A stretch of DNA of 33,055 bases from an uncultured Thiotrichales bacterium (GCA_964517365.1 CAZFEP010000001.1:17476-50530); one strand, 5' to 3'. Shown: positions 29,647 to 32,554, numbered from the stretch's first letter. Program-made: numbers and translations. Notes: generated by a model from the letters alone, not told the origin.

Positions 29647-30519
29647 TTATTGTTGTGATTTTTTATTTAAAGAATACAACAACACAGTTATCTGTTCAGA
29701 TAGCAAGCCCATTAAAAAAATCAATACAGACAATATTAATAGCGTTGCGCTCATGTTTGTGAACCGCCCTTCAGTAGTATATGTGTAGATATAATTTAGA
29801 ATGCTACCAGACAATAACAACGTGCTTATAGGGGCAAAAATCTTTAATGGTGAATATAGAGCAGCAATTTTTATAATAATGACTAAGAACCTAAGCCCGT
29901 CTTTATATATTTTCAGGTGGCTTTTCCCGACTCTTTTCGAAGCCTCTATTGGCACATAAGAAACAGTGTACCCACTTCTGAAAAATGCCATTGTAATAGT
30001 GGTGGGGTATGAAAATCCGTTAGGCAATAGATAGAGGAATTCTTTAAATTTTGAGGCATTAACTATTCTTAGTCCTGAAGTTAAATCATCAATTTTTTGT
30101 CCTACAACCATTGATGCAATTTTGTTGTAAAGCAAGTTTCCGAATAAGCGTCTTTTGCCGGCATGCGAATTGATTTCACGTGCGCCTATGACCATATCGT
30201 ACCCATCTTTGAATCGTTCAAGTAATTTTTTTAAGTCACTGGGTGTGTGTTGTCCATCAGCATCCATGAAGGCAATTAGATCTGTCTTCACAGCCCTGGC
30301 TCCTGCTTTTATTGCGCCACCATTACCTAAGCTATATACATTAGAAATTACGTTTACATCATGTTTTTTGCATATGCCAATAGTGTCATCGGTGGAGCCA
30401 TCATTTGAAATAATAATCTTAGCGTTAGGAAATGCATTTTTTAATTCTGGTAGAAATTTATCTAATGCAGGAGCTTCATTTTTAGCGGGCAATACTATAG
30501 TAAGATCTTCTTCAAGCAT
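29647..30519 (-). CDS. GT2 polyprenyl-phosphate glycosyltransferase (GtrB/ArnC/Dpm1-like)
   Basis: LTIVLPAKNEA, IIISNDGSTDDT, LGNGGAIKAG, FMDADGQH (DxD), DLTSGLR, RVGKSH. Two C-terminal TM helices end in LMGLLSEQI. This is the standard architecture of enzymes that load a monosaccharide onto undecaprenyl/dolichyl phosphate. Confidence 0.85.
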   Translation of the reverse strand: MLEEDLTIVLPAKNEAPALDKFLPELKNAFPNAKIIISNDGSTDDTIGICKKHDVNVISNVYSLGNGGAIKAGARAVKTDLIAFMDADGQHTPSDLKKLLERFKDGYDMVIGAREINSHAGKRRLFGNLLYNKIASMVVGQKIDDLTSGLRIVNASKFKEFLYLLPNGFSYPTTITMAFFRSGYTVSYVPIEASKRVGKSHLKIYKDGLRFLVIIIKIAALYSPLKIFAPISTLLLSGSILNYIYTYTTEGRFTNMSATLLILSVLIFLMGLLSEQITVLLYSLNKKSQQ

Positions 30520-30586
30520 ATAATTCTCAGTTTCTGAATAGCTAATAATGTCGGGTTTGTATTGTAGTAGTATCTTTTATACGCAT

Positions 30587-32554
30587 CTATTGTAGTCGTT
30601 GTTTAAAGTAAGTTAAATCTTTTTCGTGTAAGCCTAAGGTATCATCCTGTTCAATAGCAGTGATTAATATTTTTGCATCCTCATATTTTTTCATCGCAAT
30701 CAATAGAGTTACTAAATTAATTTTATATTGAAGTATATTAGGGGATATGCTTATAGCATTATTCATCAAAACATAAGCTTTTTCATAATCACCTAATACA
30801 TCTGCCGTGAATTTTGCATATAAGGTAAGTAAATCAGATTTATTCTTGTTGGGATATTTGTGTGGATTAGATAAAGCCGCAATGTAAAATTCATTCATCT
30901 GATTTTTATTGATATTGCATGATGTTGTAAGCGTACATTTATTAAGTTCACTAAGGCTATTAATAGTGATGTGTGTGATCGGAAATTCTTTTAATTTCCT
31001 TGTTGTACTGTCAATCCAGGAATTTTTATTCTTTCCCTTTATTAGGCTTGTGAATAATATAGCAGAGGTTTCACCAATGATCTCTTGCGGCATATAGGTG
31101 GCTGATCTTTCGAATAATGAGATAGCTTTTTCTTTTTCATTCATAATCTCTTTGAGCGTTAAATTCGCATACACTTTAGCTAATGCAAATGTTGCTCTCG
31201 CTGATGTAGGGTGATGACTGGCTTCATGATAAGCAAAAGATGCATCACTGCTCCACTGTTGTGATCTAATGAAAGTTGAAAATGAAATGCATAAAACCCA
31301 AACTATCAAGATAGAATAGATTAATTTTGTATTAGCTTTATTTTGAGCAAGCGTAAATATGCTTGCAAATATACCAAATATAACACCATAGCTCGCTAAA
31401 TAATTTCTATGCTCATAGATGAGTTCAAGAGGAAATACTGTAGATTCAAGTATGTGTGATGCAAGAAAAAATAATATTGAGAATGAAATGAAAGGATAAG
31501 CTCGGCGAAAATAAAGTGCAATCATTGCTAAACATGACACACATACTATAGAAATTAGCGTTGTAATCGGTTGCAGTATTGAGTGTGAAATCTGGATATC
31601 GTCATGATAGAGGCCGAGGCTAGAAATATTTGGCACGATTATCCAAGTTAAATAATGGAAGAGAATTCTAGGTTCGGTTAGCAATCTTTCAGTCAAAGTA
31701 AAAAATCTATGATTATACCCGTTAAGAATATAACCAGGTTCGGTAATAAAATATAAAAAAACAACTATAATTGGTGATGCGGTTGCCAGTATAAATACAT
31801 ATCGAAAAACTTTAGTGGACAAGATGTTTTTTGAATACAAATGAAATAAGCAAAATTCTATGCATATAACATAAAAGATATTTAGAATAGCGGTTTCTTT
31901 ACAAAATAATGCAATAATAAAAAATATACCGCTGAATACAATCGGTAATGCAAAGAAATCTTTATCAAACATCATTGATCTTCTGGCAACAACGTAGCAG
32001 CATAAGCCCGCCACACTAAATAGCGAAGCTAAGCTCGTCATGCGTTGAATGATATAAAGCACACCAGTTAAATTGATCGGGGATACTAACCACGCAGTAG
32101 CCACCAATAGCGATATATAGTATTTGTTGAGTAGTTTTGTGTCTTTTCTTGTGAGTTTTTCGTAGCTATCAAGCAGCAGATAGGTTAGTAAAAATAATAG
32201 AATTCCAGTTATCAGGTGAATAATTAAGTTTACTAGTTTATAGGTAAACGGATTAAACTCGGAATAGTAATAATTGATGGCGAAGCTAAACATACTGACT
32301 GGACGTTTGAGCGGCCCAGACTCTGAGGATAGGCTCGCACTTAGTATTGATTTTAAATCTAACGAATCAATTTTCAGTTGATCGTTATCCAGGAGGTTGG
32401 GTATATCGTCATGCAGGAAATCACCTTGTAACCCAGGTAGATAAATCATCACACACAAGATCAGTGAACAAGCACTCAGGATAACTCTCGTAGAGTGCGC
32501 ACTCGGTGACAAGAGTGATTGTATCTTTATCATTTTCGATGGAAAGTTTAGCAA
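30587..32554 (-). CDS. GT-C fold membrane glycosyltransferase (TMTC/PMT_2-like) with a C-terminal TPR domain; candidate pilin/protein O-glycosyltransferase
   Basis: 655 aa. The N-terminal ~430 aa are polytopic, with roughly 11-13 hydrophobic segments by eye. The first extracytoplasmic loop carries GDFLHDDIPNLLDN (D49 D50), followed by KRPVSMFSFAINYY...YKLVNLIIHL, matching the remembered F-x-DD..N and RP...F..N...H signatures of TMTC-like GT-C enzymes. The C-terminal ~200 aa have TPR-like repeats (LGDYEKAYVLMNNAISISP, MKKYEDAKILITAIEQ). The start is either the TTG at 32554 or the ATG at 32533. Confidence 0.75.
   Translation of the reverse strand: MLNFPSKMIKIQSLLSPSAHSTRVILSACSLILCVMIYLPGLQGDFLHDDIPNLLDNDQLKIDSLDLKSILSASLSSESGPLKRPVSMFSFAINYYYSEFNPFTYKLVNLIIHLITGILLFLLTYLLLDSYEKLTRKDTKLLNKYYISLLVATAWLVSPINLTGVLYIIQRMTSLASLFSVAGLCCYVVARRSMMFDKDFFALPIVFSGIFFIIALFCKETAILNIFYVICIEFCLFHLYSKNILSTKVFRYVFILATASPIIVVFLYFITEPGYILNGYNHRFFTLTERLLTEPRILFHYLTWIIVPNISSLGLYHDDIQISHSILQPITTLISIVCVSCLAMIALYFRRAYPFISFSILFFLASHILESTVFPLELIYEHRNYLASYGVIFGIFASIFTLAQNKANTKLIYSILIVWVLCISFSTFIRSQQWSSDASFAYHEASHHPTSARATFALAKVYANLTLKEIMNEKEKAISLFERSATYMPQEIIGETSAILFTSLIKGKNKNSWIDSTTRKLKEFPITHITINSLSELNKCTLTTSCNINKNQMNEFYIAALSNPHKYPNKNKSDLLTLYAKFTADVLGDYEKAYVLMNNAISISPNILQYKINLVTLLIAMKKYEDAKILITAIEQDDTLGLHEKDLTYFKQRLQ

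Follow-up and report, generated by a model that had tools for sequence, protein, structure and literature searches.

The stretch of DNA analysed here, 33,055 nucleotides from an uncultured Thiotrichales bacterium (GCA_964517365.1, CAZFEP010000001.1:17476-50530), is called the window throughout, at its full length. At its right end, all on the minus strand, it carries the type IV pilin gene pilA, a terminator-like hairpin, a gene for a membrane protein predicted to adopt the GT-C glycosyltransferase fold and a gene for a glycosyltransferase of family GT2. An island of about 12 kb (20307-32554), low in guanine-plus-cytosine (GC) content, spans the interval from pilB to pilA, and our findings make it fairly probable that this island is a type IV pilin O-glycosylation system built on a TfpW-like enzyme and a polyprenyl-monophosphate donor. 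The four features at the pilA end were confirmed where a first-pass annotation, made from the sequence, had placed them:

32655-33055, minus strand: pilA, the major type IV pilin (Pfam Pilin, 1.4e-22), its 5' end and N-terminus clipped by the window edge
32598-32634, minus strand: intrinsic-terminator-like hairpin with a U-run, between pilA and the GT-C gene; 13 bp, GC-rich
30587-32554, minus strand: TfpW-like GT-C glycosyltransferase, with about 11 transmembrane (TM) helices and a predicted periplasmic TPR domain
29647-30519, minus strand: polyprenyl-phosphate glycosyltransferase GT2, 290 aa (Pfam Glycos_transf_2, 2.9e-29)

In the pilA product, a hydrophobic helix lies towards the N-terminus and a Cys...Cys loop towards the C-terminus, and PilA is presumed to be the acceptor protein. 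The hairpin that follows the gene has a predicted folding energy (dG) of -24.6 kcal/mol (z = -5.95), and none of 200 shuffled sequences folded as stably. It probably attenuates read-through from pilA to the accessory genes; in other species, a terminator is likewise located 3' of the pilin gene and before the accessory genes (PMC11841053).

The open reading frame of the GT-C gene extends over 655 aa from a TTG codon at 32554, and the form held in the database has 648 aa from an ATG at 32533, which is the likely start. The acidic pair reported in the first-pass annotation is present within GDFLHDDIPNLLDN, as D49/D50 in the 655-aa numbering and D42/D43 in the 648-aa numbering, and the block LKRPVSMFSF...NLIIHL comes after it. 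Both aspartates are invariant in an alignment of 49 family sequences, together with R77, S80, N102, H106, K212/E213, Y294, P301, H310/D311/D312 and E374-H-R-N-Y378, and a Cys pair, C533/C539, is nearly so. Hydropathy analysis yielded 11 hydrophobic segments, the last ending by residue 418, and places D42-D43-I about 12 residues past TM1, in the loop of 72 residues that joins TM1 to TM2. The C-terminal domain of 230 residues carries the TPRs and the Cys pair. On the basis of the GT-C fold and the conserved cysteines, we infer that the catalytic DD loop and the TPR domain face the periplasm, and the near invariance of C533/C539 is consistent with this placement of the C-terminal domain.

At the level of curated sequence models, the sole Pfam and NCBIfam matches of the protein at E <= 0.1 were TPR models covering residues ~570-640. 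The DD motif and the block behind it had been taken for hallmarks of the TMTC/PMT_2 type; this attribution was not sustained, since the same scans gave no match to PMT_2, PMT or DUF1736 at that threshold and an hhalign comparison of the TM-domain profile with E. coli ArnT returned a probability of 0.3, which is no signal. Sequence searches of the PDB, whether seeded with the protein itself or with the profile of its family, gave TPR proteins only, and no match for the TM domain. A full-length AlphaFold2 model (pLDDT 91, pTM 0.90) also retrieved only TPR proteins with Foldseek. Residues 1-432 were then re-predicted alone (pLDDT 82.6) before a second Foldseek search of the PDB, in which ranks 1-13 were all GT-C-fold structures, including yeast and human STT3, PglB, ArnT and PIGU (prob 0.97-1.0, TMq 0.33-0.53, E from 2.8e-3); Pmt4 (15th), Pmt1/2 (19th), ALG6 and EmbB appeared at lower ranks. 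Judged by this model, the assignment of the membrane domain to the GT-C fold is decisive, and the acidic residues D42/D43 open the first extracytoplasmic loop, as is the hallmark of that fold. The broader part of the earlier description, a GT-C enzyme with a C-terminal TPR domain, is thereby borne out.

The family to which this membrane domain belongs is large. Its profile matched 52,880 cluster representatives at E <= 1e-3; tightening the threshold to 1e-30 left 8,608, counted as clusters at 50% identity (1.84 billion searched). Relatives over residues 1-430 are labelled merely “TPR repeat protein” or “hypothetical” in public records, and the family is annotated solely by its TPRs because the Pfam and NCBIfam models miss the membrane domain. 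A chance reading frame was also considered and is ruled out by thousands of homologues with invariant residues.

By its sequence, the neighbouring GT2 protein is a polyprenyl-phosphate glycosyltransferase of the Dpm1/GtrB/ArnC/AglJ class. Its best NCBIfam matches were AglJ, Dol-P-hexose transferase, PpgS, PgfS and ArnC, with full-length alignments to both AglJ and PgfS. The AglJ model scored 111.6 bits against an equivalog cut-off of 325, and the other equivalogs were also far under theirs; as the protein lies below all equivalog cut-offs, its sugar cannot be named. When a profile of 30 orthologues was compared with the PDB, the top seven matches were all polyprenyl-phosphate glycosyltransferases, represented by ArnC (2.7e-23), DPM1 (3e-23) and GtrB (2.1e-21). 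The motif D86-A-D88-G-Q90-H91 is invariant in the 30 orthologues and aligns with DADLQH/N of DPM1 and ArnC, and hydropathy indicates two C-terminal TM helices, at 211-229 and 256-274. These results agree with the GtrB/ArnC/Dpm1 architecture that had been read from the sequence at the outset.

At least 593 relatives came to light when the GTDB species representatives were scanned, and the best 80 loci, from gamma- and betaproteobacteria, were analysed; they take in Acinetobacter tianfuensis, Undibacterium, Novimethylophilus, Variovorax, Exilibacterium, Rhodanobacter and Lysobacter. With neighbour counts limited to loci that have sufficient flanking sequence, a same-strand pilin gene lies less than 1.5 kb upstream of the GT-C gene in 55 of 62 loci, a GT2 orthologue (E < 1e-60) lies less than 4 kb downstream of it in 40 of 58 (37 on the same strand), and both neighbours are present in 30 of 49. 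This pilin - GT-C - GT2 arrangement is far beyond chance, and the proposed tie of the enzyme pair to the pilin gene accordingly holds across the relatives. Identity to the window proteins is 50-65% for the GT2 orthologues and 30-40% for the GT-C relatives. Clustering of the neighbouring genes revealed that pilS and pilR are usually located upstream.

Downstream, a GT4 gene comes straight after GT2 on the same strand in 29 related loci, and beyond it lies a variable cassette of methyltransferases, more GT2 and GT4 enzymes, dehydratases/epimerases, aminotransferases and nucleotidyltransferases, with a flippase that is either a Wzx/MurJ-type member of the MOP family, recurrent downstream of GT2, or a PglK-like fused ABC transporter. 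The closest relatives on long contigs, L083 (55% identity), L084 (49%) and L002, share the order pilA(s), GT-C (one or two copies), GT2, GT4/methyltransferase/AsnB-like genes, MOP flippase and pilB. At least one locus, L070, has little past GT2.

The window has one GT-C copy. Tandem GT-C paralogues follow the pilin gene or genes in L010, L019, L023, L028, L029, L036, L040, L083 (551-4540) and L084 (7923-11968), a sign that the copies may share out the work or serve two glycans. The Xanthomonadales loci L030, L051, L071 and L074 lack a GT2 orthologue in the vicinity, and in them the gene for a PglK-like fused ABC transporter comes directly after two tandem GT-C genes; L030 additionally encodes a fusion of phosphoenolpyruvate (PEP) mutase with a cytidylyltransferase, which may indicate phosphonate decoration. 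Genes of the D-arabinofuranose (D-Araf) pathway were not found beside the GT2-less relatives, where we observed instead methyltransferases, LPG_synthase_TM, PEP mutase and a PMT_2 protein. In L058, a separate PMT_2-family GT-C gene (12088-13668; Pfam 1e-08) stands right after the TfpW-like gene, and two GT2 genes are present too; true PMT_2 enzymes and the TfpW-like family can therefore share one pilin locus.

Of the systems already described, the nearest is TfpW of Pseudomonas aeruginosa group IV (Pa5196/PA7), the precedent named in the first reading. TfpW (AAM52060.1) is a 646-aa protein whose N-terminus lies inside; it has 11 TM helices, bears a DDx motif in the first periplasmic loop and ends in a TPR domain on the periplasmic side. 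The tfpW gene comes directly downstream of pilA and is required for glycosylation of the pilin with D-Araf. Published modelling likened its TM part to ArnT and its TPR part to OGT, and homologues beside pilA have been described in Azotobacter, Acinetobacter venetianus, Teredinibacter, P. indica and Kingella. Compared with this published description, the window protein has a similar length (648 aa), 11 TM segments, a DDx motif in loop 1 and C-terminal TPRs, and its gene comes right after pilA (pilA stop at 32655, GT-C start at 32554/32533, terminator between them). The donor, too, would be a polyprenyl-monophosphate sugar in both cases.

The two systems differ in the supply of that donor. The TfpW donor, polyprenyl-phosphate D-Araf, is made by DPPR synthase, DprE1/DprE2 and a GtrA-like protein, encoded by genes unlinked to pilA. 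The window, in contrast, has a Dpm1/GtrB-class GT2 in cis together with GT4s, tailoring enzymes and Wzx, and tfpX is absent. No genes for DPPR synthase, DprE1 or DprE2 are found in the 33-kb window, although in P. aeruginosa such genes would not be linked to pilA either. The dedicated GT2 in cis argues for a donor different from polyprenyl-phosphate D-Araf, and the pili are probably decorated with a sugar other than the known arabinose. In our search of the literature, incomplete in its coverage, we came across no account that couples a TfpW-like enzyme to a GT2 of this class.

Between pilB and GT2 lies a 9-kb block, on the plus strand save for one minus-strand gene, whose contents and far border are as follows:

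16067-19961, minus strand: pilB (18243-19961), pilC and pilD (Pfam T2SSE 7.8e-154, T2SSF 3.9e-68, Peptidase_A24)
20307-21440, plus strand: GT4a glycosyltransferase (Pfam Glycos_transf_1, 1.4e-30)
21462-22211, plus strand: S-adenosylmethionine (SAM)-dependent methyltransferase, glycan tailoring (Pfam Methyltransf_11, 1.8e-21)
22227-23288, minus strand: GT4b glycosyltransferase (Pfam Glycos_transf_1 3e-12, Glyco_trans_4_4), with relatives in 7 loci
23645-24994, plus strand: candidate Wzx/MOP-family flippase for a lipid-linked glycan (Pfam Polysacc_synt 1.7e-30, MatE 3.6e-11)
25063-25923, plus strand: sulfotransferase-domain protein (Pfam Sulfotransfer_1, 6.6e-7)
26021-28362, plus strand: cupin (WbuC-like, weak match), 251-aa SAM methyltransferase and DegT-family aminotransferase
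28381-29571, plus strand: GT4c glycosyltransferase, convergent with GT2 (Pfam Glycos_transf_1, 6.9e-17)

Several of these genes have orthologues in matching positions elsewhere. GT4a is the orthologue of the GT4 found straight behind GT2 in the 29 loci (phmmer 8e-78 to the copy in L011, 12880-14034), and the methyltransferase at 21462-22211 has an orthologue (3e-84) within the pilin-GT-C-GT2-GT4 operon of L014. The cupin, methyltransferase and aminotransferase genes recur (9e-61, 9.5e-60 and 7e-170) just past GT2 in L003 (12833-16057), in the same convergent orientation. This trio is presumed to be an amino-sugar nucleotide cassette, and the gene set resembles the ketoisomerase/N-methyltransferase/aminotransferase sets for 3-amino-3,6-dideoxyhexoses. 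The sulfotransferase-domain protein, hinting at a sulfated glycan, has one weak relative only among the 80 loci (L021). As in the window, pilB bounds the island in L002, L083 and L084; pilB, pilC and pilD are its far edge, and belong to the context rather than to the glycosylation chemistry. Pfam scans of the 33-kb window revealed no priming phosphoglycosyltransferase, and no GtrA or Wzy_C family member.

Given the window orthologues in matching positions and the pilA-to-pilB gene order of the relatives, the functional unit is therefore the whole island, including the flippase candidate. The first-pass annotation had described a self-contained two-gene module of donor synthase and transferase; that idea gives way to a larger one, as the relatives add GT4s, methyltransferases, sugar-nucleotide enzymes and a flippase, with window orthologues between 20307 and 29571. 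Its remark that no small GtrA-like flippase is encoded was correct, but it overlooked the Wzx/MOP candidate at 23645-24994, 5 kb away in the same island. As a whole, the earlier interpretation is partly supported: its general sense is largely right, with corrections on three points, namely the TMTC/PMT_2 attribution, the size of the module and the flippase.

The observed families and folds of the two enzymes, together with the conserved order pilin - GT-C - GT2 (- GT4), are the ground on which we propose a pathway. GT2 would load a nucleotide-sugar unit onto undecaprenyl phosphate (Und-P) at the cytoplasmic face to give a polyprenyl-monophosphate sugar, as its family membership implies. The GT4s and the methyl-, sulfo- and aminotransferases would probably then extend and tailor the lipid-linked sugar, a step suggested by the gene content and the missing priming enzyme, and the Wzx/MOP protein of the island would move the product to the periplasmic side. 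There, by analogy with TfpW, the GT-C enzyme would use its DD loop to place the glycan on Ser/Thr of PilA before pilus assembly, while its TPR domain would grip the pilin.

How much of the glycan is built before transfer is a separate question. GT4s need nucleotide sugars and therefore act in the cytoplasm. They share an operon with GT2, and the island has a flippase but lacks a priming enzyme; most simply, this is read as extension of the Und-P-sugar to an oligosaccharide, which is flipped and moved en bloc. We advance this version tentatively, as a possibility that falls short of an expectation: the whole oligosaccharide might be assembled on undecaprenyl monophosphate with an AglJ/Dpm1-like GT2 as the priming enzyme, extended by GT4s and by tailoring with methyl, sulfate and amino-sugar groups, exported by a MOP or PglK-like flippase and transferred en bloc to pilin Ser/Thr. 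Such a route, if it exists, would give bacteria an O-linked equivalent of the Agl pathway of haloarchaea, widespread in beta- and gammaproteobacteria and as hypervariable as O-antigen clusters.

Several observations weigh against these proposals. With regard to the enzyme, the TM domain fits no curated GT-C sequence model, and the Foldseek E-values are modest (~3e-3), with TM-scores of ~0.5. The likeness to TfpW is a likeness to its published description, and a regular-expression search for the TfpW motif YX6PFX7P drew a blank in the window protein as well as in 260 proteins of the family and 104 open reading frames from the loci. Loop 4 of the window protein does contain an invariant Y294-x6-P301 followed by NISSLGLYHDD, in which LYHDD is invariant; this corresponds to the first half of the motif only, the PF...P half being absent. 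A homologue search from the Acinetobacter tianfuensis protein gave neither the A. venetianus homologue (WP_130134296.1) nor any Pseudomonas entry among the ten relatives looked up. With architecture and position in agreement and half of the motif present, we call the protein TfpW-like, short of a proven family member. With regard to the pathway, GT2 is missing nearby in 18 of 58 loci, and the GT-C enzyme therefore has no strict need of it in cis. PilA is a presumed acceptor, from synteny and the TfpW precedent. Bac_transf and Glycos_transf_4 (the priming phosphoglycosyltransferases), Wzy_C and GtrA are all lacking from the 25 commonest Pfam families, out of 128, in a census of 150 downstream gene clusters, so that rare priming enzymes could lie beyond the families shown. 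The GT4, Wzx and tailoring genes could instead serve a conventional undecaprenyl-pyrophosphate (Und-PP) pathway whose WecA-type primer is encoded elsewhere, and we know of no polyprenyl-monophosphate-linked oligosaccharide donor that has been established in bacteria.

Among the alternatives, the most serious is a minimal, three-component one, the version of the first-pass annotation, in which the product of GT2 is an Und-P-monosaccharide and the pilin receives single sugars from the GT-C enzyme, possibly repeatedly, as has been proposed for TfpW and Emb, while the GT4, Wzx and tailoring genes constitute an unrelated surface-polysaccharide pathway in a shared variable locus. All bacterial GT2/GT-C pairs characterised so far (GtrB/Gtr*, ArnC/ArnT, Ppm1/Pmt) use monosaccharide donors, TfpW is thought to use single polyprenyl-phosphate Araf units, and at least one locus, L070, has little downstream of GT2. 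Such a separation of pathways is at odds with the same-strand GT4 directly behind GT2 in 29 loci and with the MOP flippases and tailoring genes found inside the pilA-to-pilB interval in several independent lineages; moreover, neither a priming enzyme nor a polymerase or ligase with which an independent Und-PP pathway could run was seen in the cassettes. We regard this minimal scheme as somewhat unlikely, yet as one that deserves to be taken seriously.

Much less probable is that the acceptor is no protein at all, and that the glycan goes to lipid A, the lipopolysaccharide (LPS) core, O-antigen or another envelope glycan, as with ArnC/ArnT or GtrB/Gtr*, with the pilA linkage reflecting merely a shared hypervariable, phage-selected locus. 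ArnT is indeed among the top structural matches of the GT-C protein, ArnC is the best PDB match of GT2, and the cassettes resemble O-antigen clusters in content. Against this stand the pilin gene directly before the GT-C gene in 55 of 62 loci across beta- and gammaproteobacteria, the TPR domain, a protein-binding module that ArnT and Gtr* lack, and the genetic requirement of TfpW, an enzyme of like architecture, for pilin glycosylation. We give marginally less credence still to the idea that the GT-C protein is an O-oligosaccharyltransferase acting on Und-PP glycans, primed by a WecA-like housekeeping enzyme, extended by the island GT4s and flipped by Wzx, with GT2 providing only a side-branch sugar or serving a paralogous GT-C enzyme. 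The best structural matches, STT3 and PglB, do use pyrophosphate donors, and the two tandem GT-C paralogues of many loci could split the tasks; in single-copy loci such as the window, however, GT2 would be left without a cognate periplasmic transferase, and no other partner is as conserved or as tightly linked as GT2 (50-65% identity, versus 30-40% for the GT-C protein).

Several characterised systems resemble in part the preferred reading, pilin O-glycosylation from a polyprenyl-monophosphate donor. The GtrA/GtrB/Gtr* systems and their three-component relatives (O-antigen glucosylation in Shigella; Citrobacter/Klebsiella, Kelly et al. 2024) also consist of an Und-P-sugar synthase, either a GT2 or another enzyme, a flippase and extracytoplasmic transfer by a GT-C enzyme. 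Their acceptor is a polysaccharide, their GT-C enzyme has no TPR and their flippase is a small GtrA or a MATE protein, whereas the window system has a presumed pilin acceptor and co-conserved cytoplasmic GT4s. The AglJ/AglG/AglI/AglE/AglB pathway of Haloferax volcanii resembles the proposal in building a glycan on polyprenyl monophosphate with a Dpm1-like initiator and cytoplasmic glycosyltransferases, followed by flipping and GT-C transfer. AglJ is the best NCBIfam match of GT2 and the STT3/AglB family provides the best fold matches, a likeness that is drawn by inference. That pathway is archaeal, performs N-glycosylation of the S-layer and uses dolichol, and the AglJ score is, as given above, far under its cut-off.

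The eukaryotic protein O-mannosyltransferases TMTC1-4 (GT105) and PMT (GT39), and mycobacterial Ppm1/Pmt, share the GT-C fold, the acidic pair in loop 1 and a polyprenyl-phosphate sugar made by a Dpm1-type GT2, and TMTC also has C-terminal TPR repeats; as described above, the window protein differs in matching none of their Pfam models (PMT, PMT_2, DUF1736), and the Pmt structures ranked only 15th and 19th in the fold search. PglL/TfpO (PilO) enzymes likewise O-glycosylate pilins, and tfpO is also directly downstream of pilA, yet they belong to an unrelated Wzy_C/O-antigen-ligase-like family that uses Und-PP glycans. With Wzy_C unmatched in the scanned window proteins, an enzyme of the PglL/TfpO type is ruled out for the GT-C gene; so is a GT41 OGT-like pilin glycosyltransferase as in Synechococcus, which represents a separate soluble family.

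Pilin glycosylation affects phage resistance, immune evasion and pilus function. To our knowledge, only two routes are established in Pseudomonas, TfpO/PglL with Und-PP glycans and TfpW with D-Araf. The loci described here indicate that TfpW-like enzymes are usually paired with a different, highly conserved lipid-phosphate-sugar synthase and a variable glycan cassette, which suggests that a great variety of pilin glycans still awaits description in environmental genera and in some clinical ones, for example Acinetobacter. The system occurs widely, has escaped annotation and is open to experiment in cultured carriers such as Acinetobacter tianfuensis WCHAc060012 (L078), Undibacterium hunanense CY18W (L027), Novimethylophilus kurashikiensis La2-4 (L033), Variovorax ginsengisoli (L076) and Exilibacterium tricleocarpae R142 (L044). 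If the glycan is built on a monophosphate, bacterial glycoproteins would be assembled there by a new logic, which might also be of use in glycoengineering.

The composition of the DNA also sets the island apart from its surroundings. GC content is 32-39% over 20001-32000, versus 40-44% in the flanking dcw/secA/argJ region (1-13000), which is consistent with horizontal acquisition or with diversifying turnover of the cassette. At the opposite end of the window, the spans 30-7808 and 7885-8322 hold the end of the dcw cluster, with murB located between murC and ddl, followed by ftsQ, ftsA, ftsZ and lpxC, and a DciA gene on the strand opposite to the cluster.

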